Translations under genes and position numbers: made by a program
From: Staphylococcus phage AH12
Length of the DNA stretch: 64,000 nucleotides
Sequence record: OR455461.1
Strand: one strand, 5' to 3'
Shown: in pieces, positions 2,214 through 48,109 of the stretch
Layout: the number at the start of each line of letters is the position of its first letter
Numbering within the stretch: position 1 is the stretch's first letter
The notes under the pieces: generated by a model
What the model was told of the DNA's origin: nothing
What the model saw: the letters and a program-made list of their open reading frames with translations, nothing else
Database searches by the model: none

Positions 2214-3113
2214 TTAAAAGAAACTTCTATAACAGTTAATAATAATTTTATCATTAATAGCGTTTAATATAATAAATTCTTTATTAATTCCAGCATTAAC
2301 ATAAGCTGAGAATATTGTAACTAAAAATGAAGGCAAATGATCAATTGAAAGTATTGTCGTCTCTCCATACATTTTAGTGAAGTTTTCCACAAATGATCTA
2401 GATGAGAATTTATTAAAATTAGGATGTTTTTTAAATTCTTCAAATAATTTGAATATATTAATCATTGAAGATTGTCCATCAAACTTATTCTCCATCTCTT
2501 TAATTACTTCAAAATCAGTTCTATTATGACATGATTTGTAAGCTATTTGTTCTGTAGTATCGTCATTAGTTCTTCCTACAACACTTACTAAAAAGAATTT
2601 AGCAAACATATATGAAACTAAATCAGAGTCTCTTTTATTAATATTAGTTGCATAAAGTTTATCAATTACTTTTGTTGTTAATCTAGAATATATTTGACTA
2701 GCATAAATTAAAAGTTTAGCATTATTTCTAATTTTATTTGCATTTTCTTTAATTTTAATATTAATTAATCCTGCTTGAGCTAATCCAAATAAAGTATTAG
2801 GATTGATATTCATATTAGACTTAATATATGGAGTTATATTCACTAAAGATTTATTGCCTTGAATGTTTAATACTGGCATAAAGTTAGGTAATTTAACTTC
2901 CTTGGAGTTCATTAAGATAATATTACCATTTTCTAATTCATTAACAACTTCATTCTTTGAAGCTTGATTAACTCTATTTTTAATAATATTAAATGTATCA
3001 GATAATTGATCTTGTTGAACTAGATGTTCTCCTTTAATACTCTTTGTAATTTTATTAATATCTATTGGTAATTGTTTATAGATTTCAGATTCATTTAAAC
3101 CATAAGTTTTCAA
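2214..3113 (-). CDS. hypothetical protein
   Basis: 299-aa ORF. No recognisable motif. Confidence 0.55.
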   Translation of the reverse strand: MKTYGLNESEIYKQLPIDINKITKSIKGEHLVQQDQLSDTFNIIKNRVNQASKNEVVNELENGNIILMNSKEVKLPNFMPVLNIQGNKSLVNITPYIKSNMNINPNTLFGLAQAGLINIKIKENANKIRNNAKLLIYASQIYSRLTTKVIDKLYATNINKRDSDLVSYMFAKFFLVSVVGRTNDDTTEQIAYKSCHNRTDFEVIKEMENKFDGQSSMINIFKLFEEFKKHPNFNKFSSRSFVENFTKMYGETTILSIDHLPSFLVTIFSAYVNAGINKEFIILNAINDKIIINCYRSFF

Positions 3114-3153
3114 TATAATTTCACTCTTTCTTTAGTTTATTTTTATTTTCTTA

Positions 3154-3166
3154 ATATTAAATTGTT
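3154..3166 (-). promoter_or_regulatory. candidate late promoter AACA-N6-TAT (minus strand)
   Basis: Plus strand ATAttaaatTGTT is the reverse complement of AACAatttaaTAT, about 42 nt upstream of the 3113 start. Confidence 0.4.
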
Positions 3167-3402
3167 ACTATGGATTATATCATCTTTATATATTTTGTTT
3201 ATGTATCTCAAAATTTCTTTAATTTTAATTAATTAATTTTTAATAACATTTTTAATTACTATTATTTTTTATTAATTAAAATTTTATATAAATATATATT
3301 ATAAAATAGTAATATTAATTAATTTATTGAATTATATTTAGTAATATAATTATATTACCTAGGTTTTTTAAAAAAATTTGATTAAGAAAATTTTAGAAAA
3401 CC

Positions 3403-5492: not shown

Positions 5493-7241
5493 ATGGCATT
5501 TTTAGACAATAACATGACAAACCAGAACAACGGACAATCATACTTTATAGATGAAAATCAACAAATGATAAATTATGCAAATATAAGTATACCGTATAAT
5601 ACTTTAATGCAGATAATCAAGTATACAATTACAGAAAATAGACTTATTAATAATACAAATTTAAAAAGATTAAATAAATTCTTAGGAAATATAAATGAAG
5701 ATTTTGTTTATGATGAAGGTCAACAACATCAAAAAGATACAATTAAAGTATTAAAAGAATTAGTTAAAATTAGATTAGAAGAGTCTATAGAATCTCCTTC
5801 TATACTCTTAGAACACTTAGTAGATAAATTTAAGAGTCAAATGTCTGAATCACATTTATATGAAATTGTGAATAGTATTAAAATGTATTATGATGGTGAT
5901 CTAAAGAATTTATCTGATAAAGAAATTGATAATATTAATATGTATGTAAAAGAAAGATATGCTGCTTTAGAGCTATATCAAAAAGTGAATCTATTTAAAT
6001 ATGCATATGATCAATTAACTATGGATCGATTAAGTCCATCCGATTTATTAAAAGAAATATCTGAACCGATATCTCAAGTTAATAAAGTTATTAAAAGAAC
6101 TACAAATACTTCATCTAACACTAAAAATAGCTTTATTAACTTTTTAGAAACAGATATGGCAGTAGAAGTAATGGCGGACTCAATTGATAAATTAAGAAAC
6201 CCAACTAATAAACTTAAGACTGGATATAAGATGTTAAATAAAATGATTAATGGCGGTTTTGAAAATGGTCGTGTTTATTCATTCTTCGGAACACCTAAAT
6301 CATTCAAATCAGGTACTTTACTTAATATGTTAATGTCAGTTACTCTGGCTAACAAAGCAGTCGATATTAATAATTTAGATCCTAATAAAAAACCAGTAAT
6401 ATATTATTTGACTATGGAAAACTCTATGAGTGAATCTCTTGATAGACTTTATGAATATGTAACAGGTCATTCAATGAGTGAATCAAATCAATCACCACAA
6501 GAATGTGTAAATCAATTAATTGATTATACTTATAGACAAACTGGAATTAGTATTGTAGTTGAATATAAAAAGAATAATGAAGTGTCTACTGATTATCTTT
6601 ATGAAGTTTATGAAAACTTAGAAGATGAAGGATATCAATTAATGATGGTTGTACAAGACTATTTAAAACGTATTCGAGCTTCAGATCATATTGAAGACTT
6701 ACGTATACGCTTAGGTGCAATCTCTGATGAATTTACGGTGTTTGCTAAGGAAAAGGATATACCAGTAGTGACTGCAGCACAACTTAACAGAGAGGCATAC
6801 AGAAATGTAGAGAAAGCTATAAGTGAGAAAAAGACAGATATTGCTAAACAATTAGACAGAAGTCAAATTGCAGAATCAGCAATGATCATAGAGAACATAG
6901 ACTATGGTATCATCATAAATAGAGAGAATGCTAGTGATGAAAGTCAAGATGATCATTTATCATTTAAATTAATAGCTAGTCGTGGTAAGATGGGTGAAGA
7001 TAGAGTTGAATACTTCGCTCAACCATTTGATAATTCATTTAAACTTGCTGTTGATGAAGGAACACCTGAACTTAAAGGTGTAGAATCTATAGGATCAAAC
7101 TTAGAAAGTACTATAGATTCTGTGGCGGCTAAAACTAAAATGACTAATATCGCTAATCAATTTAAAAATGGTCCTATTGCTAATGAAAATACAAATAGTA
7201 ATGAAGAATTTGAACCTGGTAGTATTTTTCACGATTTTTAA
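5493..7241 (+). CDS. DnaB-like replicative DNA helicase
   Basis: Walker A GTPKSFKSGT. Helicase motif H4 AAQLNRE, with I..ESA and KMGE elements matching the DnaB C-terminal RecA domain. Confidence 0.7.
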   Translation: MAFLDNNMTNQNNGQSYFIDENQQMINYANISIPYNTLMQIIKYTITENRLINNTNLKRLNKFLGNINEDFVYDEGQQHQKDTIKVLKELVKIRLEESIESPSILLEHLVDKFKSQMSESHLYEIVNSIKMYYDGDLKNLSDKEIDNINMYVKERYAALELYQKVNLFKYAYDQLTMDRLSPSDLLKEISEPISQVNKVIKRTTNTSSNTKNSFINFLETDMAVEVMADSIDKLRNPTNKLKTGYKMLNKMINGGFENGRVYSFFGTPKSFKSGTLLNMLMSVTLANKAVDINNLDPNKKPVIYYLTMENSMSESLDRLYEYVTGHSMSESNQSPQECVNQLIDYTYRQTGISIVVEYKKNNEVSTDYLYEVYENLEDEGYQLMMVVQDYLKRIRASDHIEDLRIRLGAISDEFTVFAKEKDIPVVTAAQLNREAYRNVEKAISEKKTDIAKQLDRSQIAESAMIIENIDYGIIINRENASDESQDDHLSFKLIASRGKMGEDRVEYFAQPFDNSFKLAVDEGTPELKGVESIGSNLESTIDSVAAKTKMTNIANQFKNGPIANENTNSNEEFEPGSIFHDF

Positions 7242-8094: not shown

Positions 8095-8661
8095 TTATTG
8101 ATTAACAAATTTATGTTTAATCAAAGTTTTAATAAAGTCTTTTTCAGATAACCAATCTCCTGTATTATTATATACATTAATGTCAGTAACTTCATCTAGA
8201 TCTTCTTTTTCTTTAATCAAATCTTTTTCATTTCTTCCTTCACGTTTAATTTGATTATTTTCGTTAATAACTTGAATTGTTAATATATCTGATTCATTTC
8301 CGTATTTTTCTTTAATATCTCTTACAGAAGCGTCTCTACCTTCTCTATTTACAATGATTATATTTATATTGTATAAACCATTTTCTGGATATTTATAGCT
8401 TTGATCAATAGTACCATAATAATTTTCATAGAAATTGGTTTTAGCGATTAATTTATCTTTCATAGAATCATATTCTTCTTTATTTAAGAATACATAATCT
8501 TTTCCATCAATTTCATTATCTCTAATTGGTCTAGTTGTTACTTGATCTAATTTTTTGAAAGATAAATGTGGAAAATCTTTTTGGGTTACTAAATTCTCAG
8601 CCAAATAAGATTTTCCACTTCCTGAAACTCCACATAATAAAATAAATTTTTTCATATCCAA
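8095..8661 (-). CDS. guanylate kinase-like P-loop nucleotide kinase
   Basis: CGVSGSGKS Walker A. TTRPIRDNEIDGKDYVFL ... YGT matches the GMP-kinase signature. Confidence 0.6.
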   Translation of the reverse strand: MDMKKFILLCGVSGSGKSYLAENLVTQKDFPHLSFKKLDQVTTRPIRDNEIDGKDYVFLNKEEYDSMKDKLIAKTNFYENYYGTIDQSYKYPENGLYNINIIIVNREGRDASVRDIKEKYGNESDILTIQVINENNQIKREGRNEKDLIKEKEDLDEVTDINVYNNTGDWLSEKDFIKTLIKHKFVNQ

Positions 8662-35367: not shown

Positions 35368-37626
35368 TCATTCAAATATAAAATTAGTTGAACCTGTATC
35401 ATATACTTTATTTATATAAGTTTTATTTTTATCAATCTTATGTCTTATATAACTATCATTACTTGTACCTTTTAAGAAAGTCTTTTCAATAGGTAATTCA
35501 TTACCTACTTTATACATTCCAAATTTCTCAAATTTATAACATGTATATGAATCAGATTTTACATTAAAAGTTAGACTTGGAAATATCTTTTTAATTTTAA
35601 TTAAATCTGCGTCTGTATTTAAAAGTGAAATAAAATTATGTGATACATTAGTCTTATTATTAAAAGAAAATGCACAAATAATATAACCTTTATAATAAAG
35701 AGCGAAGAAGTCAGAATCTTTCCCATAAAAGTCTTCTGTTGAATGATTTTCAAAGAAATCTTTAAATGTAAAGAATCCCATAGATTTAATTTTTATATCA
35801 CCATAATCTAATACAGAATAATCATCTTTAAATAGTAACAATTGATGTAAGAATTTAGCATAATTCTTACCATCAATTCTTTTAGTTTCATTACGGATAT
35901 CATCATCAAATAAATTAAGAAGATGGTACCCTTTTTCTTTAAGTTCATTGTATTTCTTAAGTTGATGATATTTAGCATTTATATCAGATTTAGTTTCATT
36001 GGAATGATATTTAACTCCATTAACTTCAATAGCCAATTTATACTTTTCAGAGAGTATATCAATTTCTTTACCATCTAACAAATCTCTATTCTGTCTTTCT
36101 ATATCAAAACCTAAATATTTCATTTCATCAGATACTTTTGATTCAGCAATAGAAGATTTTCCATTACTACATGACGGACAATTAATACCTTTTTCTATTA
36201 AATCATTTGCATTTATTTTAAATTCACCATGGTCTTTACATATTACTATTGATCTTTCATATTTATCGTTAGGTCTAAATTTACTCATATTATATTTATC
36301 TTTACCATGTTTAATATTTGCAAGTGTTTGATATACTTCAGTCTTTTCTTCTTCAGTATAATCAAAGTTATTAAGATTTTTAATCTTAGTATTAAGTGAC
36401 TTTATACGTTTATACTCTTTTAATTCCTGAACAGAATATTTTCTCTTATTCTTTATTTTTGGTATTGATACTGATACTGAAACTATTTCTTTTTGATCTT
36501 CATTTGAATCTTTAACTTTATCTTTAACTTTATCTTTAACTTTATCTTTAACTTTATCTTTAATATTATCCTTAACTTTATCAATATCAAAATTATTAGA
36601 GATTTCTCTTTCTATATTTTCTTTCTTCATATTCTTTTTAATTTTCGGTGTTTTCTTTATACCTTTAAGTAATTTCTCAGTTTCTTCTTCACGTTTCTTT
36701 TTATTATTCTCTACGATTTTTTCCCAGTCTTTATCTATACTAAGTTTTTCTTCTTCACATTTAGGACAAGCTAATTTTTTATCAAATAACATTTCGTGTA
36801 TAGATGTTTTAAATTCACCATGTTTTTCACATATAATTGGTTGAATATCTTTTTCGTTAATAGGTCTAAATTTAGAAAAATCATAGTTTGTATTATTAGC
36901 TTTATTTAGAGCTAAATCATAAATATGGTTTTTCTCATCTTCTGTATAATCTTTAGTCAATTCTAAAAATAAATCAGGATCTATGTCTTTTAAATTATTA
37001 AAGATATTTTCAGTAGTTGCAACTTCTCCATCTTTCTTACAACCTGGACAGCCATCAAGATTATTTATAAGAAAATTTTTAACTGAACTTTTAAAGCTAC
37101 CATGTTTTTCACAGACTATATTTTGTTTAGTATTTATACTGTTCGGTTTAAAATTAGATACATCATAAGGAGAATATAGTCCATATTTAGCTATTGTAAT
37201 ATTATAGAAGAATAAATATTTTTCTTCTTTACTTTTATTCTTTAAATATCTAACTTTATCTTTCATTTTAGTAGAGCTATTTAAGAAAAATGTATAAGGT
37301 TCTAAAAATTCATTAGGATCTTCTACCATAGGAGATTCAAGTCGCTTAGTTCTTTCTTTATTTTTTAAAAATTTCTCAGCGTTAACTTTATTTTCATTTT
37401 CTCCTGATTCAATTATTCTTAAACAGCTTTCAAAATAATTATCGAACCATTCTTTACTTTTAGTATATTTAATCATTCTTATTTTAAAATCTTCAGATAT
37501 TTTTCCTTTATATGTTACTTTTACTTTATCTTCATTTATTTGATAATCTTTATCATTATCTATATTAAATGTATAGTCATTACCTAATTTTTCTTTAAAG
37601 CTTTCTCTTAATTTTTTACCTAACAT
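35368..37626 (-). CDS. homing-endonuclease-like protein: three CxxHG...CPxC zinc-ribbon modules, KDKV tandem repeat, Vsr/DUF559-like nuclease domain
   Basis: Repeated CEKHG(S/E)FK ... CP(G/K/S)C modules three times. LAIEVNGVKYHS motif shared with the other HE-like ORFs. Confidence 0.5.
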   Translation of the reverse strand: MLGKKLRESFKEKLGNDYTFNIDNDKDYQINEDKVKVTYKGKISEDFKIRMIKYTKSKEWFDNYFESCLRIIESGENENKVNAEKFLKNKERTKRLESPMVEDPNEFLEPYTFFLNSSTKMKDKVRYLKNKSKEEKYLFFYNITIAKYGLYSPYDVSNFKPNSINTKQNIVCEKHGSFKSSVKNFLINNLDGCPGCKKDGEVATTENIFNNLKDIDPDLFLELTKDYTEDEKNHIYDLALNKANNTNYDFSKFRPINEKDIQPIICEKHGEFKTSIHEMLFDKKLACPKCEEEKLSIDKDWEKIVENNKKKREEETEKLLKGIKKTPKIKKNMKKENIEREISNNFDIDKVKDNIKDKVKDKVKDKVKDKVKDSNEDQKEIVSVSVSIPKIKNKRKYSVQELKEYKRIKSLNTKIKNLNNFDYTEEEKTEVYQTLANIKHGKDKYNMSKFRPNDKYERSIVICKDHGEFKINANDLIEKGINCPSCSNGKSSIAESKVSDEMKYLGFDIERQNRDLLDGKEIDILSEKYKLAIEVNGVKYHSNETKSDINAKYHQLKKYNELKEKGYHLLNLFDDDIRNETKRIDGKNYAKFLHQLLLFKDDYSVLDYGDIKIKSMGFFTFKDFFENHSTEDFYGKDSDFFALYYKGYIICAFSFNNKTNVSHNFISLLNTDADLIKIKKIFPSLTFNVKSDSYTCYKFEKFGMYKVGNELPIEKTFLKGTSNDSYIRHKIDKNKTYINKVYDTGSTNFIFE
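36501..36575. repeat. 12-bp coding tandem repeat (CTTTATCTTTAA x ~6) encoding (KDKV)n
   Basis: Direct tandem repeats visible in the sequence, inside 35368..37626. Confidence 0.7.
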
Positions 37627-37806: not shown

Positions 37807-38180
37807 AATGTTACTTTTACGAGAAAAGTATAAAGTTGCTTTAATAATTTTTTATATCCTATAAAGCATAAGAAGGATTAAAGAAACCAATATATGCATG
37901 GAACATATTAGGAATCTTATAGTGATATTTTAATAGTCTAGTTTTTCTTATATTAGGAACTAAAACTAGAAAACCTAAAGTGTATTAAAGTCAGATACTT
38001 ATCACAAATTAATGTAAAATAAGTCCTCTTTAATACTTCTTTTTTAATACTTTTTTACAACTAAAGATATGCCTTAACTTTAGTTGAATCTAATAAATTA
38101 AGTTTGGCATATCACTTAATTTATATTTTATTTATAGCAGGTCTGCAGCCAAGCTATAAGGATGATTAATCCTATAGGGT

Positions 38181-38265
38181 TGTTCCTAATGAGATTCGAA
38201 CTCATAACCTACAGATAAATTTTAATTCATAAATCTGTACGCTCTGACCATTGAGCTATAGGAAC
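38181..38265 (-). tRNA. tRNA-like gene with aberrant anticodon arm (16-20 nt loop); isotype not assignable
   Basis: Canonical acceptor stem (GTTCCTA/TAGGAAC), D-arm GCTC-AATGGTCA-GAGC and T-arm ATGAG-TTCGAAT-CTCAT. The anticodon stem TACAGAT/ATCTGTA encloses a 16-nt loop. Confidence 0.45.
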
Positions 38266-38625
38266 ATAGAAATTTAAAAAAAAATTAAAAGAGTACATTT
38301 ATCATCTATGCACTCTTTTAAGTAAATAAATATATAATAATATCTATTAATTTTTAATTATACGTAAGGAGGCGTATGGATTTCTATTTAAAACCATGAC
38401 ATATTAAAAATAGAAACAAGAGAAACCAAAGAAACATTTTTAAACCAACAACGAGTGACAAAGTAAGTTATAATAGAATTTAATCTATTATATTTTTTAG
38501 TTAAATCAAAAACTAAAAAAAATCTATAATAATTTGACGAGAATCATTATAGATTTATACTATATAGTTAATTAATATTTTTAAATAAAATTTTTTTAAT
38601 AAATAGGAATTTTAGACCAAAAAAA

Positions 38626-38695
38626 AGCTTATCCGAGGGATCGAACCCCGGACACATGATGAAAATCATTGCTCTACCAACTGAGCTAGATAAAC
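38626..38695 (-). tRNA. tRNA gene (short anticodon arm: 4-bp stem and 6-nt loop; isotype uncertain), followed by T7 run
   Basis: Acceptor stem GTTTATC/GATAAGC, D-arm GCTC-AGTTGGTA-GAGC, T-arm CGGGG-TTCGATC-CCTCG. The anticodon region is ATGA-TTTTCA-TCAT. Confidence 0.5.
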
Positions 38696-38742
38696 TTTCT
38701 TCATTATTATAATATATGTTTATATTTCACTATATTACGCTT

Positions 38743-38792
38743 TTAATAAATATAATCTTCTATATCAATTTCATTTTGTTTAATTGTCATAT
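38743..38792 (-). repeat. 50-bp duplicate of the beta-prime gene 3' end (encodes MTIKQNEIDIEDYIY*), differing from copy 40063-40112 only at 3 wobble positions
   Basis: Direct comparison of the two 50-mers: identical except for ata/att, gac/gat and atc/ata, all synonymous. Confidence 0.7.
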
Positions 38793-40027
38793 ATTCCTGA
38801 ATTATGATAATACAATTTTCTTTTATTATCAAAAATTTTCATGGGTTCTTTGATTTCTATTTTATCTTTCATTTTTAAATAATGACTATATTTCATATTA
38901 TCTAAAGAATTTGTTTTTACTTCTTTTTTGATAATATTTTCTAATTTTTCTTTTAAATTATAATTTTCATTCTCATATAAAAATACAGTAGAAAATTTAT
39001 TTTCTAAAAGAAATAGAGCTTTTTCTTGATGATAATATTTATCTTTAAATATTTCTGAATGCCAGTAAGCTCCATTACATTCGATAGCTATTTTTTCTTT
39101 AATATCATCAATATATAAAATTATATCAATTTCTCTTTTACCAATAAATTTATTATTTTCAATATGATAACTATAATTTTCGTTGTCTAAAATTTCTTTT
39201 AATTCATCCAATACATTAATTTCAAATAATGAACGTTGTTTAGAATTACATTTACAACCTCTAGGACGATATCTATCATAATTTATATAATCTTTAAAAA
39301 TAGTATTACATTTATTACATCTAAATGAATATATAAATTCTGAATTTATACCTTTAAATTCATCATAAGTGTTTAAAATGTCTATATCATATTTTTTTAA
39401 TAAATTCTTTAAATTATAATAAGTTTTATTTTTTCTAATTTTATTTAATTTTTCTTTTATGGTGTCATTTTTCATAGGATTGTCTACACCATATCTATTG
39501 ATAAAAGATTCTTTTATTATATTTGACATATTAGGTATTTCATAAATATTATTAGCATCAAATTTATTTTTTATTTGATCTTTAATATTTATGAAATTCC
39601 CATTATTTTTTAAAGTATTATGTGATTTAGAAGATATTACTTTATTTTTCATAGGATTGTCTACACCATATTTATCAATAAAAGCTTTCTTTCTTTTAAT
39701 ATTAAAATCTTCTATTTTATTCATATTGCTTGTTCCATACTTATCTTTTAAAGTTTTTCTTCCTTTTTCATATTTTTCAGGATCTTTCATAGAACAACTT
39801 CTAGAACAATATACTCCTAATTTATGTTTATTTTTTACAAATTTAACTTTATTTTTTCTACAATACTTACAGTAAATTACAGAATTTATATCATTTCTTA
39901 TATAGTACATTCTTTCAGATAAATTTACATCTTTAAATTCATTTAAAAAATCAGTGTATTTAATAATATCATTTTTATATTTATTTAAAGCAGGTCCTTT
40001 TATTTTCTTAATTTGTTCTAATTGCAT
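38780..40027 (-). CDS. homing-endonuclease-like protein with three (K/R)YGVDNPMKN repeats and a Vsr/DUF559-like nuclease domain
   Basis: AIECNGAYWHS motif. Repeated DKYGVDNPMKN modules. Its stop codon lies inside the duplicated 50-mer. Confidence 0.5.
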   Translation of the reverse strand: MQLEQIKKIKGPALNKYKNDIIKYTDFLNEFKDVNLSERMYYIRNDINSVIYCKYCRKNKVKFVKNKHKLGVYCSRSCSMKDPEKYEKGRKTLKDKYGTSNMNKIEDFNIKRKKAFIDKYGVDNPMKNKVISSKSHNTLKNNGNFINIKDQIKNKFDANNIYEIPNMSNIIKESFINRYGVDNPMKNDTIKEKLNKIRKNKTYYNLKNLLKKYDIDILNTYDEFKGINSEFIYSFRCNKCNTIFKDYINYDRYRPRGCKCNSKQRSLFEINVLDELKEILDNENYSYHIENNKFIGKREIDIILYIDDIKEKIAIECNGAYWHSEIFKDKYYHQEKALFLLENKFSTVFLYENENYNLKEKLENIIKKEVKTNSLDNMKYSHYLKMKDKIEIKEPMKIFDNKRKLYYHNSGIYDN

Positions 40028-40047
40028 ATTATCACCCTTTCTAAAAT

Positions 40048-40064
40048 GATAATATATATTTATT
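40048..40064 (-). promoter_or_regulatory. class-A-like motif AATAAATATATATTATC (minus strand)
   Basis: 20 nt upstream of the 40027 start. Overlaps the beta-prime stop. Confidence 0.3.
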
Positions 40065-40458
40065 AATAAATATAATCTTCGATGTCTATTTCATTTTGTT
40101 TAATTGTCATATCATGGAAAGACTTCATAGAGCTTGTTACAATTGCTTGAGCTACCTGATTGACTAATAAACCAATATTTTCTATACCTAATTTGTAAGG
40201 GAGTTCTCCTGCACATTTACTACAGATATCTTCACTTGCACAATACATAGGACTTCTGAAGTTCAATACTTTCCCAATATGCTCATCTACATTTGAAGTA
40301 GTTAACAGTGTTAATTGACCTTTTCTTCCTGAATTATCTTCAAAATATCTATAAAGTAAAAGATTCGCATTATCTTTAGTTAAAGTTAATTTTAATGTAT
40401 GTTTTGTTCTACAATCAGAACCTTGTTTATCTAATACAGTTGTTTGGAAAGCAGACAT
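40063..40458 (-). CDS. multisubunit RNAP beta-prime-like subunit, distal C-terminal exon
   Basis: RSPMYCASEDICSKCAG (compare RSPLTCE..GVCAKCYG) and GLLVNQVAQAIVTSSMKSFH (compare [21 protein letters not shown]). The reading frame is open upstream to 40479. Confidence 0.65.
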   Translation of the reverse strand: MSAFQTTVLDKQGSDCRTKHTLKLTLTKDNANLLLYRYFEDNSGRKGQLTLLTTSNVDEHIGKVLNFRSPMYCASEDICSKCAGELPYKLGIENIGLLVNQVAQAIVTSSMKSFHDMTIKQNEIDIEDYIY

Positions 40459-40482
40459 AAGTTTTTTAGCTTGATCATTTTA

Positions 40483-40603
40483 TTATCTATATTTTATTAT
40501 AGATTAGACTATATCTTATGAATTTAATCATTTCTATATTTAGTCGTTGAACAACTTAATAAAGTTGATGCTAGTTAGTTTTTAACATTCTAGCAATTAA
40601 TAG
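40483..40603 (-). mobile_element. group I intron-like element B (P TTAATTGCTAG, Q CTAGCATC, R GTTCAACGACTAAAT, S GATATAGTCT)
   Basis: All four core elements present in order on the minus strand. The P/Q pairing GCTAG:CTAGC covaries relative to GCTGA:TCAGC in the other four copies. Confidence 0.5.
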
Positions 40604-40644
40604 AATTTATTGTGAGCATCTAATTTACCCACCTTCTTGAGTCA

Positions 40645-40816
40645 TTTATGTTAATCTATATTAATTTAATATAGATCAGACTATATCAAAAACTCTTTAT
40701 GAGTTTAATTATATTTAGTCGTTGAACAATCATTCTGATTGATGCTGATTAAGTTTATCTCTTCTCAGCAATTAATAATTTTTCTATTATTACATTACTA
40801 TAATAAAGGGCATTCA
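40645..40816 (-). mobile_element. group I intron-like element A, with 5' region ATGCCCTTTATTATAGTAATGTAATAATAGAAAAAT shared with the intron at 45210
   Basis: P, Q, R and S elements in order (rc of 40764-40775, 40741-40752, 40713-40727, 40678-40688). The upstream exon ends ...GGTATATGA. Confidence 0.5.
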
Positions 40817-41617
40817 TATACCTAAAGCACGTCCAGCTGAACCAGCAGTCATAATGTCTCCAAACATATATAGTTCTTCTGGATCAATTCCATCAGCTAA
40901 AGAACTCTTAGCAATACGTATTTTACTAGGATCAGCGAAGTTTTTATTTGCTCCACGTATTAATGCAGTTAACTTGAAGTTATTTCCAAAACTACCTCTT
41001 GATCCACTATCATAAATATCAAGGTCTGCTAAACCTTCTAATTCTTCTTTACTTAACTTAATTAATTCTTTTTCAATAGCACTAATAGCATTCAATTCTT
41101 CACCAGGAGTATTTAATGCTTTACCATATTTCTCTAGTAATTCTTCTTTCTTTTGTTTAACTTTATCAGGAGCAACCATCATTGTAGTTGTCAAACTAGA
41201 ATTAATAAATCCTGCTATAGAGAAACCAAGCCATTGAAGTTTATCAATATACATATTCATATCTTTAGTTGTAATAACATCATTAAGTAATAAACTAGAT
41301 AACTCAGATTGTAGATTTCCTACACCTGATCCTCCCATATCTTTATTCATATATCCTATAATAGGTCCTATTTTATTGTCTAATATAAATTTATTAAATA
41401 TATATCTTCCAACTGTTGTTCTTTCATCTTTACTATTATAAACTAAATCTTTTTTAAGTTTAAATCTATCGCTAGGATTAAACATTGGTTGTGTATTTTG
41501 TCTAAATGCAAATAATTCTTTAAGTTTATCAAGAGTAATATCTTCTTTTTTTATACTTAATAAAGTTGATACTTCTTTCTCAGATAAATCTTTTTTATCA
41601 TAAGTCATATTAACCAA
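40814..41617 (-). CDS. multisubunit RNAP beta-prime-like subunit, proximal C-terminal exon
   Basis: DSGSRGSFGNNFKLTALIRG (compare [21 protein letters not shown]) and TAGSAGRALG (compare STHGARKGLADT). Confidence 0.65.
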   Translation of the reverse strand: MVNMTYDKKDLSEKEVSTLLSIKKEDITLDKLKELFAFRQNTQPMFNPSDRFKLKKDLVYNSKDERTTVGRYIFNKFILDNKIGPIIGYMNKDMGGSGVGNLQSELSSLLLNDVITTKDMNMYIDKLQWLGFSIAGFINSSLTTTMMVAPDKVKQKKEELLEKYGKALNTPGEELNAISAIEKELIKLSKEELEGLADLDIYDSGSRGSFGNNFKLTALIRGANKNFADPSKIRIAKSSLADGIDPEELYMFGDIMTAGSAGRALGI

Positions 41618-41648
41618 TTTAATTTCACTTCTTTCATATATTATTTGT

Positions 41649-41661
41649 AATATTTGAATGT
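41649..41661 (-). promoter_or_regulatory. candidate late promoter AACA-N6-TAT (minus strand) for the beta-prime C gene
   Basis: Plus ATAtttgaaTGTT is the reverse complement of AACAttcaaaTAT, 33 nt upstream of the 41617 start. Confidence 0.45.
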
Positions 41662-41886
41662 TATCGTCAATTTTATATTTTTGTAATTTATAAAAATATC
41701 TCGTAAAAAATTTGAAAACGCCCGGAATATTATATTTATATAATAATATAATTATTATAATATATTAAAATATTTAAATATTTTAATATATAAAAAATAT
41801 AATATTAGAGGGGGTATATTTAGATTTTGATTATATCAAAATCTAATAAATTATTTCTTCTTAAATTACATAAGAAAGATAAAGAA

Positions 41887-41899
41887 AACAAGTACATAT
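41887..41899 (+). promoter_or_regulatory. candidate late promoter AACA-N6-TAT for the beta gene
   Basis: AACAagtacaTAT 36 nt upstream of the GTG 41934 start. Divergent from the 41649 motif across a ~300-bp AT-rich region. Confidence 0.45.
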
Positions 41900-41933
41900 A
41901 TAAATTTATTAAATGAAAGGAATTGAATAATAA

Positions 41934-44900
41934 GTGAAGTATCTTAATAGATTAAAGAATTTAAAATTCTATTCAATTTCAGGATATAAGATTAAAGCTA
42001 TAGATGAAAATATTAAGGATCAAAAGAAAAACCAATTAATAATTTATAAAGGTTTTAAAGAAAATTCATTTATAGAATTCTTAAATAGTGGTATATTATA
42101 TTATCAAAATTTCAAGAATATTTATACTCCTAGAATATATAGAACAGCAAATAGAAAATCAAGATTAATTACTAATATTTCAGATTATCAACAAGAAATT
42201 AAAAGTAAATCAATTAAATCTTATAGAGTTGAAAGAAATGAGAAATTATTTAAAGGAAGAAACTATATAGTTGATTCAAGTAAATTTATCAATCTTGAAG
42301 ATAAATCTTTAATGACTAAGAATTTTAAAACTGTATCAGATTCAATTAAAAATACTTATAATAATTTAAATAATCCAGAAGAATATGAAAATTTATTATA
42401 TGTAATTAATGTAGATGGATACAATAAATCTTCTCAAGAAGCTATTAGACCAAATACAAAAGATTTTATGTCAAGTTTATTTATGATGATTAAGAATCAG
42501 GAAGAATTACCTCATAAAGAAAATCAAAATGTAGTAGCTTTATTTATTTCTATTGAGAACGGTATAATGTTTAAATTTGATTTTAAAGATTATAATAAAT
42601 TCAATAATAGATTAAGACAAAGATTAAGAAGAGCTATTGATTTAAATACACAACAAATAGATACAGATGAAATTTCTAATGTTGAAGATGATGATAATAC
42701 AGAAGCTATAGATTCAACTATTAAAAAGAAATCATTTAGCAATGTTAAAGATATTGATCCAGTTGAATTACAAGATAAGAATGAAGATGAAGTTAATCAG
42801 GATATTGAAGATTCTAAGATGGAAAAAATATCTAAGAAAATAGATGATACATTAAGATATATTAAATCTAATGATAATATTGATATGGATATTAATGATG
42901 AATATAATATTGCAATGATAATTGAAAAAGAATTAAACAATAATAATGATCTTATTGATATTGATGAAGATACATTATACAATGATGTACTTGATAAGAA
43001 TGATTCATTTAAATCAATTAAAAGAGATATTAAAAATAAATCATATATTGGAGACACTGCATTAAAGAATTCTAAAAAGATATTATCACTAGCTAAAAAT
43101 CAAGATGAATATCTTGAAAAATTAGAAGATTTTAGTTTCTCTGAAGATAGTATTATTGATAGAGAAATTAATGAAAATGTCAATAGTATTAATGATGAAG
43201 CAATAAACAATGTATCTTCAAATGATTTTGACTTATCTTATATGAAAAAGACATTTAATAAAGACTTTGTAAATATTATGAAGAGTTTTAATGATAAGGA
43301 AGAAATACCAGTATTCATTAACAAAATGAATGTAGAAGATAATTCAGATTCTCAATCATTAAAGAATACTGTAAAAGTTCAATTTAAGAGTCCTGATGGA
43401 ATTAACCATAATGTAAAATTTGATGTACCTAAAATTATTGATGGTAAATATTTAAAATTAAATGGTGGTAAAAAGGTTCTAACTAAACAATTAATGATGT
43501 ATCCTATTGTTAAATATAGACCAGATACAGTTTGGATTACAACTAATTATAATAAATTTATCATTGAAAAATTTGGTACTAAAGAGAATTCTGAAACTGA
43601 ATGGCTTAAAAAAGTTATTGAAGATAAACAAGTACTAGAATACATTAAAGATAAAAATGATATTAATATTCAAAAAGGTAACTCATCTTTAATTAATAAA
43701 GAATATTTAACTTCTGTGTTGTATAATAATTTATCTAAAAATATATTAAGATTCTCTAAAGATGATTTGATAATTGATTTTAATCAAAGAAATCTTAAAA
43801 AAGTTATTTCAGAAAGTAAAACTTTAAGTGAAATTGATTATGATAAAGATAAATACTATCCTATCGGTTATAGTTCAAACAAATCTAAATTAATATTGTC
43901 AAATACTACAGAATCTATTATTTTTAAAGCTACTAAAAGTAATATAGAATCTATGAATATTAATATTACAGATTATATTATTGAACAACTTGAAGATAAT
44001 ATTGATTTTAGTCTAATAGATAAAAAATTCAGTAAAAATATTCAAGCTAGTAAAACAATGGCATTTTCTCGTGTTAAAATTACTAATAAATTAATTCCTA
44101 CAATAGTATTATTAGGTTTCTATAAAGGTTTAACTAGTATTCTTGATCTTTATGAAGTTGATTATAAGTTTGTTGAAGAAAATGAAAGAATAACTATTAA
44201 AGATAAGAAGAATAAAATTAAATTCCAAAATGGTTATCTTATTTATTCAACAGATAAATTAAGATATGATTTATTATTATCAGGATTAAATACTATTCCT
44301 ACTTCACAATATGACTTTGAAGAATTTAATAGTGAAACACCTTACTTAGAATACTTTAATGATAAGTTCTATAGTCGTAATGTTGGTAAAGGAATTAAAA
44401 ATGCATTAGATTTAGCAATGGATCCTATTACAGAAGATGTATTAAGAGATTTAAAATTACCTGAAACTATGGTTGAGTTATTACTCTTAGCTAATACCAT
44501 GCTAGAAGATGTAACTGCTAGAGAACACAATGACATGGGAATATATCGTGTACGTGGTCCAGAACAAGTTAATGCTTTAATGTATAAAATGATTGCAAAT
44601 GCATATAAAGAATATTCTGACTCTTACAATAATAAGAATCCTAAGAATATTTCAGTTAAACAAGACCAATTAATTAAAACTATTATGGAACAACCTACTG
44701 TAGATGAAGTATCTGATCTTAATCCATCTTTAGAGATTGATAAGATGACTTCAGTAACTTTTAAAGGTCCAGCAGGACGTAATAATGAACAATCATATGA
44801 ACCTGATATTCGTTCATATAGTGAAAGTATGCAAGGCGTATTAGGAATATCTAGTCCTGATAGTAATAAAATTGGGGTAGTTAGACAGCTTTCATATAAT

Positions 44901-45050
44901 TCATTAATTAAATCTACTAGAGGTTATACTGATGGCGGTAAAAAAGATGCTAATGATACATCTCTATACACTCCATTAGAATTACTTAACCCTTATTCTA
45001 GTAGACATGCCGATAATCAAACATGGATAGTCGGCTTAAAAACTATTTAA
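41934..45050 (+). CDS. multisubunit RNAP beta-like subunit, exon 1
   Basis: C-terminal KGPAGRNNEQSYEPDIRSYS ... SPDSNKIGVVRQLSYNS matches [25 protein letters not shown] ... TPEGPNIGLINSLS. The stop TAA is the first triplet of the P element. Confidence 0.65.
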   Translation: MKYLNRLKNLKFYSISGYKIKAIDENIKDQKKNQLIIYKGFKENSFIEFLNSGILYYQNFKNIYTPRIYRTANRKSRLITNISDYQQEIKSKSIKSYRVERNEKLFKGRNYIVDSSKFINLEDKSLMTKNFKTVSDSIKNTYNNLNNPEEYENLLYVINVDGYNKSSQEAIRPNTKDFMSSLFMMIKNQEELPHKENQNVVALFISIENGIMFKFDFKDYNKFNNRLRQRLRRAIDLNTQQIDTDEISNVEDDDNTEAIDSTIKKKSFSNVKDIDPVELQDKNEDEVNQDIEDSKMEKISKKIDDTLRYIKSNDNIDMDINDEYNIAMIIEKELNNNNDLIDIDEDTLYNDVLDKNDSFKSIKRDIKNKSYIGDTALKNSKKILSLAKNQDEYLEKLEDFSFSEDSIIDREINENVNSINDEAINNVSSNDFDLSYMKKTFNKDFVNIMKSFNDKEEIPVFINKMNVEDNSDSQSLKNTVKVQFKSPDGINHNVKFDVPKIIDGKYLKLNGGKKVLTKQLMMYPIVKYRPDTVWITTNYNKFIIEKFGTKENSETEWLKKVIEDKQVLEYIKDKNDINIQKGNSSLINKEYLTSVLYNNLSKNILRFSKDDLIIDFNQRNLKKVISESKTLSEIDYDKDKYYPIGYSSNKSKLILSNTTESIIFKATKSNIESMNINITDYIIEQLEDNIDFSLIDKKFSKNIQASKTMAFSRVKITNKLIPTIVLLGFYKGLTSILDLYEVDYKFVEENERITIKDKKNKIKFQNGYLIYSTDKLRYDLLLSGLNTIPTSQYDFEEFNSETPYLEYFNDKFYSRNVGKGIKNALDLAMDPITEDVLRDLKLPETMVELLLLANTMLEDVTAREHNDMGIYRVRGPEQVNALMYKMIANAYKEYSDSYNNKNPKNISVKQDQLIKTIMEQPTVDEVSDLNPSLEIDKMTSVTFKGPAGRNNEQSYEPDIRSYSESMQGVLGISSPDSNKIGVVRQLSYNSLIKSTRGYTDGGKKDANDTSLYTPLELLNPYSSRHADNQTWIVGLKTI

Positions 45051-45145
45051 TTGCTGAAATTACTTTAAAGTTAATCAGCATCAATCAAATTGTTCAACGA
45101 CTAAATAATAGATACTAATTATATAATTAGTAATGATATAGTCTC
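45048..45145 (+). mobile_element. group I intron-like element 1 (P 45048, Q 45071, R 45092, S 45135)
   Basis: TAATTGCTGAAA ... TTAATCAGCATC ... GTTCAACGACTAAAT ... GATATAGTCT in order. About 100 nt. Confidence 0.45.
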
Positions 45146-45209
45146 AACTATGTATAAAGTATATAGAAATAAGATAATGTCTCCACGTATTGGAATGACT
45201 GGTATATGA
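45141..45209 (+). CDS. putative micro-exon (VSTMYKVYRNKIMSPRIGMTGI)
   Basis: Open frame between elements 1 and 2. NKIMSP loosely resembles NRALMG of beta. Ends GGTATATGA, exactly as the beta-prime exon before element A does. Confidence 0.3.
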   Translation, partial: VSTMYKVYRNKIMSPRIGMTGI

Positions 45210-45410
45210 ATGCCCTTTATTATAGTAATATAATAATAGAAAAATCTTTAATTGCTGAGAAAATAATAATTAAGTTAATCAGCATCAATCAAATTGTTCA
45301 ACGACTAAATAAGATTATACCTAAACGGTATTTGATATAGTCTCAGCTTTAATTTATTTTAAAGAAGTTCATTAAGAACTAATACACAATAAACAAAGTG
45401 TATTAAGATA
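45210..45410 (+). mobile_element. group I intron-like element 2 (P 45249, Q 45272, R 45293, S 45334) with shared 5' region
   Basis: ATGCCCTTTATTATAGTAATATAATAATAGAAAAAT followed by P, Q, R and S in order. Confidence 0.45.
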
Positions 45411-45865
45411 ATCTGACTCAAGCCAAGCACGTAATTCCAACAAAAACTAATAGTAAACCATTAGTTGGATCTGGTGTTGATAAATCTTTAGCTTATCAAT
45501 TATCAGATACATTTGCTTTTAAAGCTAAACAAGATGGTAAAGTATTAAAAATTAACGAGAAAACTGGTTTAATGACAGTAGAATATATCAATGGTGAAAA
45601 AGATATTGTTGATATATCTGAAAAATTAGCCAAAAACTCTAACTCAGGTTTTTATCAATCTAATAAACTTGATCCACAATTTAATGTAGATGACACTTTT
45701 AATAAAGGTCAAATACTTGCTAAAAATAATAATTTCTTTGCTGGATCCGGTAAAGATAATGATATTCAATTTACTTCAGGTAAATTATCTAAAGTATCTG
45801 TAGCTAGCTCATATGGTATTATAAATGCCTTTCATTATAGTAATGTAATGTCAAAAAATTATTAA
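45407..45865 (+). CDS. RNAP beta-like subunit, exon 3
   Basis: NLTQAKHVIPTKTNSKPLVGSGVDKS ... KAKQDGKVLKI matches [23 protein letters not shown] ... AKRGGVVQYV. Track ORF 45572..45865 is the ATG-limited part of this open frame. Confidence 0.55.
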   Translation, partial: DNLTQAKHVIPTKTNSKPLVGSGVDKSLAYQLSDTFAFKAKQDGKVLKINEKTGLMTVEYINGEKDIVDISEKLAKNSNSGFYQSNKLDPQFNVDDTFNKGQILAKNNNFFAGSGKDNDIQFTSGKLSKVSVASSYGIINAFHYSNVMSKNY

Positions 45866-45992
45866 TTGCTGAGAAATATTAAATTAATCAGCATCTCTAC
45901 ATTTATAGAGTTCAACGACTAAATATGATTATTCATTAATACTAATGAATTTGATATAGTCTAATCTATTATAAAAATATAATAGCTAATAT
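45866..45992 (+). mobile_element. group I intron-like element 3 (~127 nt; P4/P5, P6, P7, P8 and P9 hairpins assignable)
   Basis: TAATTGCTGAG ... TTAATCAGCATC, CTCTA/TAGAG hairpin, GTTCAACGACTAAAT, ATTCATTA/TAATGAAT hairpin, GATATAGTCT, CTATTATA/TATAATAG hairpin. Confidence 0.5.
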
Positions 45993-45994
45993 AA

Positions 45995-46756
45995 ATGACT
46001 TATGAAGATAGTTCTATTATTTCTAGTAGTATGTCTGAAGCAATGTCTACTAAAGTTACTATGAAGAAAACAGTAAATATTCCATCAAACACAAATATTC
46101 AATATATAGTTAAAGAAGGTCAGAAAGTACGTACAGGTGATCCTTTAATGATATTTGAAACTTCATTTGATGAAGAAGGTATTGGTTCTTTATTAGATAA
46201 AATCGGTAGTGAATTTGAACAAGATATTCAAGATATAGCTAATCGAGCTGTTAGAAGTAAATATACAGGTAATATTAAAAAGATTAATATTTATTATAAT
46301 GATGATATTGAAAATATGACTGATAGTTTAGCTAAATTAGTTAATAATTACATTAAAAAATCAAATGATAAATATAAAGAATATAAATCTGGAGTTAAAA
46401 ATAATAAAGAAACTTTACCTGGTATTGATGTAGATATTGCAGCTGTAGAGAAAATTAATACAGAGAAAATTAAAGGAGAAAAAGTTGACGGAGTTCTTAT
46501 TGAAATCTTCACTGAATATGAAGATGATATGAGTGTTGGAGATAAAATTAGTTTCTACGGAGCTTGTAAAACTGTAGTTGCTGATGTAACTCCTCCAAAT
46601 GAATCACCTTATTCTGAATATAGATCTGATGAAGAAGTTGAAGCTGTATTCTCTCCATTAAGTATTGTCTCTCGTATGACAGTTGATATTTATATGATGT
46701 TATTCACAAATAAAGCTTTAATAGAATTAAAACGTAAAGTAAAAGATATGGTATAA
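45995..46756 (+). CDS. RNAP beta-like subunit, exon 4
   Basis: EGQKVRTGDPLM (compare GEPVERGDVLADG) and GDKISFYGACKTVVADVTPP ... SPLSIVSRMTV (compare GDKMAGRHGNKGVISKINP ... NPLGVPSRMNIGQ). Confidence 0.6.
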   Translation: MTYEDSSIISSSMSEAMSTKVTMKKTVNIPSNTNIQYIVKEGQKVRTGDPLMIFETSFDEEGIGSLLDKIGSEFEQDIQDIANRAVRSKYTGNIKKINIYYNDDIENMTDSLAKLVNNYIKKSNDKYKEYKSGVKNNKETLPGIDVDIAAVEKINTEKIKGEKVDGVLIEIFTEYEDDMSVGDKISFYGACKTVVADVTPPNESPYSEYRSDEEVEAVFSPLSIVSRMTVDIYMMLFTNKALIELKRKVKDMV

Positions 46757-46763
46757 AATTTAT

Positions 46764-46799
46764 AAGATGATTAATATCTATTTAATCATCTTTTTTTTA
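46764..46799 (+). terminator. rho-independent terminator after the beta gene
   Basis: AAGATGATTAA / TTAATCATCTT 11-bp stem followed by T8. Confidence 0.55.
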
Positions 46800-46803
46800 T
46801 TTT

Positions 46804-46816
46804 AACACTATAATAT
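46804..46816 (+). promoter_or_regulatory. candidate late promoter AACA-N6-TAT
   Basis: AACActataaTAT 32 nt upstream of ATG 46847, directly after the terminator. Confidence 0.45.
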
Positions 46817-46846
46817 TAATAAACATATAGAAAAGAGGAAAATATA

Positions 46847-48109
46847 ATGAATTTGGAATCATTGGAAGAATCATTAGATAAAGAATTTAATTTAACTAAT
46901 GAAGAATTAGAACGTAAGGTAGATACTGATAAAGAAGAGCCTATTTGTGAGGATTGTGGTTCTAAAAATTTATCTCTTAACGAATCAAATCAATTAGTAT
47001 GTGAAGATTGTGGTTCTGAGAACAGTAAAGTAGTCAAAGAAGAATTATTAACTGAAGGAATTAGTGAATTCTTTGCTAAACATGATGTTAAGAAAATAAC
47101 TAAAAAAGCAATTAAAAGAGGTGCTACTAAAGTTGTAGTTAAAGAAATTGCAGATTTAGATATGATTGAAAAACTTAAGAAAGATAGAAGAATCAAAAAG
47201 TTACTACCATTAATAGGTGTAGTTGGTATGGCAATAAATAAGAAAAGTCCAGCTCAGATCGTAGCAAATATCGCAATTATTGGGTTGGGTGCAGCACATA
47301 GTGAAATATCTTCTAAAACTGAAGCAGGTAAAGATAAAGGATTAACAATTACTTTCACTAATGAGGAAAAAGAACTTGTTCAGTCAATTGTTTTTACAAC
47401 CACTGGATTAGACTTTAATAAAGCTGATGTAAAGAAAACTATTAAATCTTATATTGATAAGAAAGATAAAGAATTAATTGTAGAAAATATGAATAAATTA
47501 AATGAGCTAGATGGTTTGATGGAAGATATTTATATTCAAGAAGGTAAAAAATTAGATAAAGCTAAAAAAGTGGCTAGAAAAATTTTTGTGGGATTAACTC
47601 CTGAAGAAATTAAAGAAAAATTTGCTATACGTGTAGCTAAAAAGAAATATAATATTGAAGTTAAAAAAGGCTATAAGATAAATTATTCTGACGCTAAATT
47701 GTTTACACATGCAACTACACGTAAGGATTCACATACTATAGATTACGAATTAAGTTTAGTATTTTCTTTTACTAAACCTAATGGTAAGAAAAGTTTCTTG
47801 GATAGAAGCGTTTTCATTTATAATCGTTTCTCAACAATGCAAGAAGCTGTATCATTCCAAAATAAACATGGAAAAGATTTATTAAAAATATTTAAAACAA
47901 CTAAAGCAGATAAAAAACCTAAGAAATCTAAATCAGTTAATGAAGGCATGGAAGAATTAGGTATTAATGAAGATTTTGAAGACAAATTATTTGAATATTT
48001 AGAAGGCGTTACAGAGCAAATCTTATCTGAAGAAAATAAAGAAGAACAACAAACTAATGAAGATATTACATCTTTAGAAGAATCTTTAGATAAAGAATTC
48101 AGTTTATAA
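46847..48109 (+). CDS. zinc-ribbon protein with terminal LEESLDKEF repeats
   Basis: CEDCGSKNLSLNESNQLVCEDCGS. The N- and C-termini repeat (S/T)LEESLDKEF(N/S)L. Paralogous to part of 49542..51458. Confidence 0.55.
   Translation: MNLESLEESLDKEFNLTNEELERKVDTDKEEPICEDCGSKNLSLNESNQLVCEDCGSENSKVVKEELLTEGISEFFAKHDVKKITKKAIKRGATKVVVKEIADLDMIEKLKKDRRIKKLLPLIGVVGMAINKKSPAQIVANIAIIGLGAAHSEISSKTEAGKDKGLTITFTNEEKELVQSIVFTTTGLDFNKADVKKTIKSYIDKKDKELIVENMNKLNELDGLMEDIYIQEGKKLDKAKKVARKIFVGLTPEEIKEKFAIRVAKKKYNIEVKKGYKINYSDAKLFTHATTRKDSHTIDYELSLVFSFTKPNGKKSFLDRSVFIYNRFSTMQEAVSFQNKHGKDLLKIFKTTKADKKPKKSKSVNEGMEELGINEDFEDKLFEYLEGVTEQILSEENKEEQQTNEDITSLEESLDKEFSL

Follow-up and report, generated by a model that had tools for sequence, protein, structure and literature searches.

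Probable tandem mini group I introns around a 16-nt micro-exon in the virion RNA polymerase beta-prime gene of a Staphylococcus jumbo phage

Background

What interrupts the virion RNA polymerase beta-prime gene of Staphylococcus phage AH12, and how could one continuous protein still be made from it? In the stretch of DNA analysed here (64,000 nt of sequence record OR455461.1, hereafter the window), the gene appears as two minus-strand ORFs, 40814-41617 and 40063-40458, that lie 355 nt apart (gap 40459-40813). A first, sequence-only reading of the window had placed two tandem sets of group I intron core elements in this gap, on the minus strand. Both sets are present and complete, and the core of that reading, tandem group I introns of one family, is supported by the sequence comparisons described below. 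The locus is very probably explained by two independent, ORF-less mini group I introns, 16 nt apart, in the virion beta-prime gene. They represent a known kind of element and not a new kind.

The window (G+C ~24%) is related to the AR9/PBS1-like Staphylococcus jumbo phages, which encode multisubunit RNA polymerases. Over positions 39000-47000 the best relative is phage Machias at 96.6% identity, followed by PB50 at 94.9%, by LY01, Madawaska, MarsHill, PALS_2, DC4 and S6 at ~82%, and by SA1 at 79.5%. The minus-strand gene (41617-40063) carries the label "viral RNA polymerase beta-prime subunit, mid-domain" in the relatives, so the name beta-prime C first given to the gene piece does not hold; the divergent plus-strand gene starting at 41934 is labelled "viral RNA polymerase beta subunit". 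Judged against bacterial beta-prime, the interrupted stretch is presumably the bridge helix.

Exon-intron organization of the beta-prime gene

The proposed layout is as follows:

Exon 1, 41617-40820, minus strand: 798 nt, ends GCT TTA GGT (GRALG); from tblastn with the intact SA1 protein
Intron A, 40819-40643, minus strand: 177 nt, predicted group I; absent exactly here in PB50, Madawaska and SA1
Micro-exon, 40642-40627, minus strand: 16 nt, ACTCAAGAAGGTGGGT; codes for T-Q-E-G-G and the first base of Tyr
Intron B, 40626-40476, minus strand: 151 nt, predicted group I; alone in PB50, absent in Madawaska and SA1
Exon 3, 40475-40063, minus strand: 413 nt, begins AT CAA GCT, completing Tyr; from tblastn with SA1

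The end of exon 1 at 40820 is also obtained by alignment with the intron-less Madawaska gene, and the joins from tblastn with intact SA1 proteins are the same as those from the alignment (A1), in which Madawaska reads without interruption ...GCACTAGGA ACTCAAGAAGGCGGGT ACCAAGCTAAG.... The micro-exon is colinear with ACTCAAGAAGGCGGGT of Madawaska and with TQEGG in SA1, DC4 and other homologues. Intron A falls between codons and intron B after the first base of the Tyr codon, the exon 3 product continuing as QAKKLMSAF.... When both introns are taken out, the coding sequence is 1227 nt long, in frame and without an internal stop; it reads ...AGSAGRALG-TQEGG-YQAKKLMSAF... and matches Madawaska, SA1 and DC4.

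These boundaries correct those first assigned to the two elements, and they change what counts as exon. A micro-exon between A and B had been suspected and does exist, but at 16 nt instead of ~45 nt; the longer candidate, LKKVGKLDAHNKFY, is read out of frame and extends into intron B, colinearity with the intron-less alleles being limited to 16 nt. The identical exon end GGTATATGA ascribed to both polymerase genes is exon in its GGT only, the other 6 bases being intron. Neither intron A nor intron B contains an ORF of 40 aa or more, hence no intron-encoded homing endonuclease. A twintron was considered and rejected: both cores are complete and lie side by side with coding sequence between them, and B occurs alone in PB50.

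Natural alleles at the two insertion sites

Three kinds of allele are found among the relatives: i) no intron at either site, in Madawaska, MarsHill, SA1, PALS_2, S6, DC4 and AR9; ii) intron B only, in PB50, where the micro-exon is fused to exon 1; and iii) both introns, in the window, Machias, LY01 and the metagenomic contig L132. The Machias copies of introns A and B show 99.1% identity to those of the window. At the DNA level the intron-less alleles lack precisely the two proposed introns, and the single-intron allele precisely intron A; these alleles thus define the exact excision points that restore the conserved GRALG-TQEGG-YQAK. No allele with A only was found among those examined; a candidate, P0004/L132, was rejected since both of its sites are occupied, and another contig (P0005/L133) is cut by its end at this region.

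Contig L132 carries a different intron, ~320 nt, at site A, followed by the same 16-nt micro-exon and, at site B, by a group I intron with the guide GCCCAC. Several metagenome homologues stop at the same places: P0004 at site A, P0003, P0005, P0097 and P0107 at site B, and P0112 and P0115 at a third site a few codons upstream. Together with L132, these protein ends mark a short stretch of the gene as a recurrent insertion hot spot.

The GenBank records of the close relatives treat the region differently. The Machias beta-prime CDS is a join of 2 pieces; a two-exon annotation cannot represent three exons, and the 16-nt micro-exon thus appears to be missing from that record, judged solely from its "joined from 2 pieces" flag. 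In PB50 and LY01 the beta-prime pieces are annotated as separate proteins. The two-piece join would also fit a single composite intron of ~344 nt, everything from GRALG to QAKK being removed at once, and phage group I introns are reported to cause exon skipping (PMC11878797, citing Twort orf142). Such an event is nevertheless highly improbable here. Removal of 344 nt in one step shifts the frame, 16 not being a multiple of 3, and deletes the conserved TQEGGY; PB50 has B by itself with the micro-exon already joined to exon 1; and each element has a P1, a core and a terminal G of its own. Two separate introns account for the same records, and the frame shift on joint removal implies that they must leave separately.

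Group I features of introns A and B

Five exact copies of the R element GTTCAACGACTAAAT are found in the window, at 40552, 40727, 45092, 45296 and 45910; when up to 2 mismatches are allowed there are six sites, as against 0.17 expected by chance. Every exact copy is preceded by AATTGCT.. (P) and followed 37-43 nt later by GATATAGTCT (S). The first two lie in introns B and A.

The splice sites have the expected form. U precedes each 5' splice site and the last intron base is G in both, intron A ending ...AAAUG and intron B ...AAAAUG. P1 of intron A is formed by GGU/AU (the slash here and below marks a junction) with AUGCC and contains only 3 exon base pairs; P1 of intron B is formed by GUGGGU with GCUCAC. 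In both, the exon U pairs with G. P10 of intron A, with the micro-exon start ACUCA, has 4 of 5 pairs when counted by script, and that of intron B, with AUCAAG, has 3 contiguous pairs and 2 more, the LY01 version being a perfect 6-bp helix. Eleven of the 16 micro-exon bases are consequently engaged, 5 by P10 of the upstream intron and 6 by P1 of the downstream one. In a sister intron of the beta gene (b1, below), the exons of the window and of Madawaska differ by synonymous substitutions, and the guide has changed along with them, in P1 as well as in P10.

Helices P3-P9 can be drawn in both introns, and P2 in A and none in B. The predicted guanosine site is an invariant G-C, the second pair in P7, which follows a bulged C. 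Minimum free energy folding, unaided, yields P1, P2 (A only), P4/5, P6, P7, P8 and P9, with z-scores of -3.6 for intron A and -3.56 for intron B; P3 is absent from these folds because it forms a pseudoknot with P7.

Rfam model RF00028, in a local search, aligns both elements end to end, most of the model's P8 and parts of its P5 and P6 appearing as deletions, but at 27.3 bits (A) and 26.9 bits (B), with E ~1e-4 for both, below the gathering score of 50, which is a detection cut-off and not a biological feature. At the gathering threshold Rfam returned two tRNA matches and no intron in the whole window. A covariance model made for this analysis (R1) scores intron A at 126.6 bits and intron B at 104.7 bits.

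Both introns are ~21% G+C and lack the peripheral helices P2.1, P5abc, P7.1/7.2 and P9.1. These helices stabilise most self-splicing introns. Being very small, AT-rich and without peripheral domains, the two RNAs may need a protein helper or unusual conditions. They could even be group I-derived without being autocatalytic, excised only when a protein cofactor from phage or host assists, or excised inefficiently so that the polymerase subunit is limited or regulated. Their lengths of 151 and 177 nt, their base composition and their scores below the Rfam threshold all lean that way, as does the precedent of four Bastillevirinae introns that were spliced only in infected cultures and not in vitro (PMC11878797). 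Set against this, no copy shows any change in the P7 G-C next to the bulge, in J8/7, in J4/5 or in the terminal G, and such an intact core, together with guides that track exon changes, points to selection on ribozyme function. Dependence on a cofactor is taken as a real, though fairly unlikely, alternative to the self-splicing introns proposed here.

Covariation of the predicted RNA structure

Nineteen distinct copies from the window, Machias, PB50, Madawaska and LY01 were aligned with MAFFT (alignment A2), and pairs were counted on a hand-drawn P3-P9 structure with P7 treated as a pseudoknot. Standard pairs are found in 88.3% of the cells, compared to 29-48% when the partners are slid by 1-3 columns, and 22 pairs have changed on both sides, although many of the 19 copies are close relatives and cell counts overstate the independent events. 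None of 500 shuffles equalled the observed covariation score. Most of the variable pairs show 3-5 different standard pair types, and in an alignment fitted to R1 pairing rises to 90.1% with the picture unchanged. By helix the values are:

P3: 99% paired; 5 of 6 pairs compensated
P4: 2 pairs compensated, both of the variable ones
P6: 96% paired; 4 of 5 pairs compensated
P7: 100% paired; 0 compensated (invariant)
P8: 87% paired; 6 of 6 pairs compensated

The P4 change was the observation from which the functional-RNA argument had started, and it stands: intron B has UGCUAG with CUAGCA where the other four copies in the window have UGCUGA with UCAGCA, that is, G-C to A-U plus A-U to G-C at adjacent pairs. 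The argument that compensatory change indicates a functional RNA is borne out by the pairing and the double changes among the 19 copies. Further covariation was sought in P3, P7 and P9; P3 and P9 are supported, whereas P7 never varies and is therefore uninformative either way. Overall the covariation supports the predicted helices P3, P4, P6, P8 and P9. A core in which P3 and P7 could not fold would have spoken against group I introns; the core is present, and the 3' strand of P3 lies between both strands of P7 in 19 of 19 copies.

These data bear on a further explanation, in which nothing is spliced: the ORFs 40814-41617 and 40063-40458 would be translated separately, their products would assemble, and the intron motifs would be remnants in decay. 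In jumbo phages the beta and beta-prime subunits are naturally divided among several genes (PMC7598289), and the PB50 and LY01 annotations follow that pattern. The downstream ORF, however, starts at a Met inside a conserved stretch and so loses TQEGGYQAKKL, close relatives have one continuous protein, and relics would not keep 88% pairing, compensatory changes and exon-matched guides. Hardly any weight can be given to a split gene, and the reading with two excised introns is retained.

Related introns in the beta gene and in other phages

The other three copies lie in the virion RNA polymerase beta gene:

Intron b1, 45015-45179, plus strand: 165 nt; 36.1 bits with Rfam
Micro-exon of the beta gene, 45180-45203, plus strand: 24 nt, SPRIGMTG
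Intron b2, 45204-45415, plus strand: 212 nt; context GGT/ACTCAAG
Intron b3, 45818-45997, plus strand: 180 nt; context GGT/ACTTATG

Searching the 64-kb window with R1 gave no copies beyond the five known. SPRIGMTG is a 100% tblastn match to residues 1025-1032 of the intact SA1 beta protein, and RF00028 scores two of the beta-gene copies at 36.1 and 31.5 bits. The beta gene thereby mirrors beta-prime, with b1 and b2 in tandem around a 24-nt micro-exon; PB50 annotates the beta pieces as three separate proteins. The 5' segment said to be common to element A and the second beta element is real, 41 of the first 42 intron bases being identical. The idea of one family in similar contexts also holds, since site A, b2 and b3 all have GGT/ACT, and site A and b2 share GGT/ACTCAAG.

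A blastn search with the segment from intron A through intron B has matches only in Staphylococcus jumbo phages, many per genome:

Machias: at least 27 places
LY01: at least 28 places
PB50: 20 places
Madawaska: 12 places
MarsHill: 8 places

With R1, the first 149 kb of Machias yield 16 strong copies, of which several are in tandem. One Machias pair (MW349128, contig L128, ~2823-3180) lies in the non-virion beta-prime gene and flanks the 6 nt GCCGAT. The intron-less SA1 allele reads GGT GCA GAC TAT GAT GGC GAT, or G-A-D-Y-D-G-D, so that the Machias micro-exon encodes the "AD" of this motif, which we take to be the catalytic aspartate motif of beta-prime. Annotation of the Machias CDS stops at 2822, at the first intron, so that the motif is missing from it. 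Tandem mini group I cores are also seen in Machias contig L129, at 1772-2092 and 8236-8565, in the prohead protease and large terminase genes. Tandem mini-introns occur on uncultured jumbo phage contigs in IMG/VR as well, at 3405-3726 of L082 and 6174-6520 of L093, and five core matches lie within 2.7 kb of another such contig (L023, 33-2672). The spacing between the cores in the tandem pairs of L129, L082 and L093 is 21-36 nt.

Neighbouring endonuclease genes and repeats

Directly downstream of beta-prime lies a homing endonuclease-like ORF (38780-40027, minus strand, 415 aa; phrog_3339, with a weak PD-(D/E)XK REase match). It is flanked by a duplication of the last 50 nt of beta-prime, 94% identical, at 38743-38792 and 40063-40112. 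The beta-prime stop (40063) is where homology to Machias and PB50 sets in, and so the 1.3-kb cassette is not there in them; their tRNA follows 47 nt after that stop, the same distance as from the downstream repeat copy to the tRNA here. The gene looks like a recent free-standing endonuclease insertion that brought its own copy of the beta-prime 3' end. A link between it and the introns is unsupported, Machias having both introns without this gene at that position. A second homing endonuclease-like ORF (35368-37626, minus strand, 752 aa; phrog_3339/559) has treble-clef zinc-finger motifs and an internal 12-nt tandem repeat encoding (KDKV)n at 36494-36591.

Two tRNA-like genes (38625-38696 and 38178-38266, minus strand) have abnormal anticodon arms, one with too short a loop and the other with ~14 extra nt in the anticodon loop region. 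ARAGORN assigns no anticodon to either, and the Machias counterparts are annotated as tRNA-Asn pseudogenes. Intergenic copies of a G+C-rich palindrome, CCCCAATACCTA...TAGGTATTGGGG, with A/T runs on either side, lie at 7231, 30403, 35307, 37695, 48117 and 58823; they are probably shared bidirectional terminators.

A model for splicing and mobility

In the proposed mechanism each transcript element would fold into a group I core, P3-P9 with the P3/P7 pseudoknot. The guide of intron A would pair with the last three exon bases, GGU, and that of intron B with GUGGGU, the six bases that end the micro-exon. Each intron would then excise itself by two guanosine-initiated transesterifications, the first attack falling at the P1 U.G pair, and the exons would be ligated after the terminal G while P10 holds the downstream exon. 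Separate removal of the two introns, the micro-exon being kept, would restore the frame ...GRALG-TQEGG-YQAKKLMSAF.... The spliced product would carry a peptide spanning GRALGTQEGGYQAK, and the RNA would contain the junctions GGT/ACTCAAGAAGGTGGGT/ATCAAG. Autocatalysis, any order of the two splicing events, any route of mobility and retention of the micro-exon are all inferred.

The tandem pair most likely reflects two mobile introns that were acquired independently and overlap at one highly conserved site. Candidate routes of mobility are DNA-level homing, aided by free-standing homing endonucleases, which are numerous in these phages, and reverse splicing into GGU/ACU-like sites.

A broader reading, doubtful at present, is that these introns form a minimal high-copy ORF-less group I family of ~150-210 nt, with dozens of copies per genome, which spreads by itself into guide-matched sites of the GGU/ACU type and piles up in tandem at polymerase catalytic motifs. 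If so, it would spread for example by reverse splicing, leaving behind micro-exons of 24, 16 and even 6 nt, and few natural self-splicing group I ribozymes would presumably be smaller than intron B at 151 nt. In exons of such length, the same few nucleotides would have to serve P10 of one intron and P1 of the next, either jointly or by being handed over, and an order of splicing would thereby be imposed.

Comparison with known systems

Introns in AR9-like jumbo phages were predicted by Korn et al. from protein alignment to intact homologues (bioRxiv 10.1101/2020.12.14.422802). That work covers the same lineage (AR9, MarsHill, Madawaska, Machias) and the same genes without analysis of RNA structure, guide sequences or covariation, all three of which are given here. 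The layout described here also departs from the published Machias annotation, in which the 16-nt micro-exon and the second ribozyme are unrepresented. In DC4, a related phage, Rfam identified no intronic sequences (PMC10638138).

The "Jug" jumbo gut phages have introns of ~206 nt, ~18.5 per genome, whose splicing is supported by metatranscriptomes (Sci Adv 2026, PMC12880540). According to the parts of that report consulted, these introns resemble the present ones in being ORF-less, ~200 nt long and numerous in each genome, and they interrupt essential genes alongside many free-standing homing endonuclease genes. The Jug phages are of a different clade and host (Bacteroides), and tandem pairs with micro-exons, as found here, are not described in those parts of the report.

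Several group I introns per phage gene, as in beta-prime here, are found in Twort and the Bastillevirinae, where it took cDNA sequencing to reveal a small exon between two introns; the set comprises Twort orf142, phiNIT1 rNDPL and SIOphi TerL (NAR 2025, PMC11878797). In those cases as in the present one, the first 5' splice site might mistakenly be joined to the second 3' splice site, but exon skipping here, unlike there, would be out of frame. The Bastillevirinae and Twort introns average ~800 nt and mostly contain endonuclease ORFs, in contrast to the 151-177 nt and ORF-less introns A and B. Collaborative (trans) homing of ORF-less introns by free-standing endonucleases has been reviewed (PMC3984707); those systems share with the window the ORF-less introns, the conserved sites and genomes rich in free-standing endonuclease genes.

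Significance

Default Rfam thresholds miss introns A and B entirely, and the beta-prime mid-domain is encoded as one continuous protein only if the 16-nt exon is recognised. The Machias record with its two exons and the PB50 and LY01 records with their separate proteins all drop conserved residues of the putative bridge helix. The locus offers a well-resolved case of two independently gained mini-introns crowded together where an RNA polymerase is most conserved. The alleles with none, B only or both could be ready-made controls for splicing and homing, and the cores, very small and yet complete, might serve as minimal ribozymes, provided that they self-splice.
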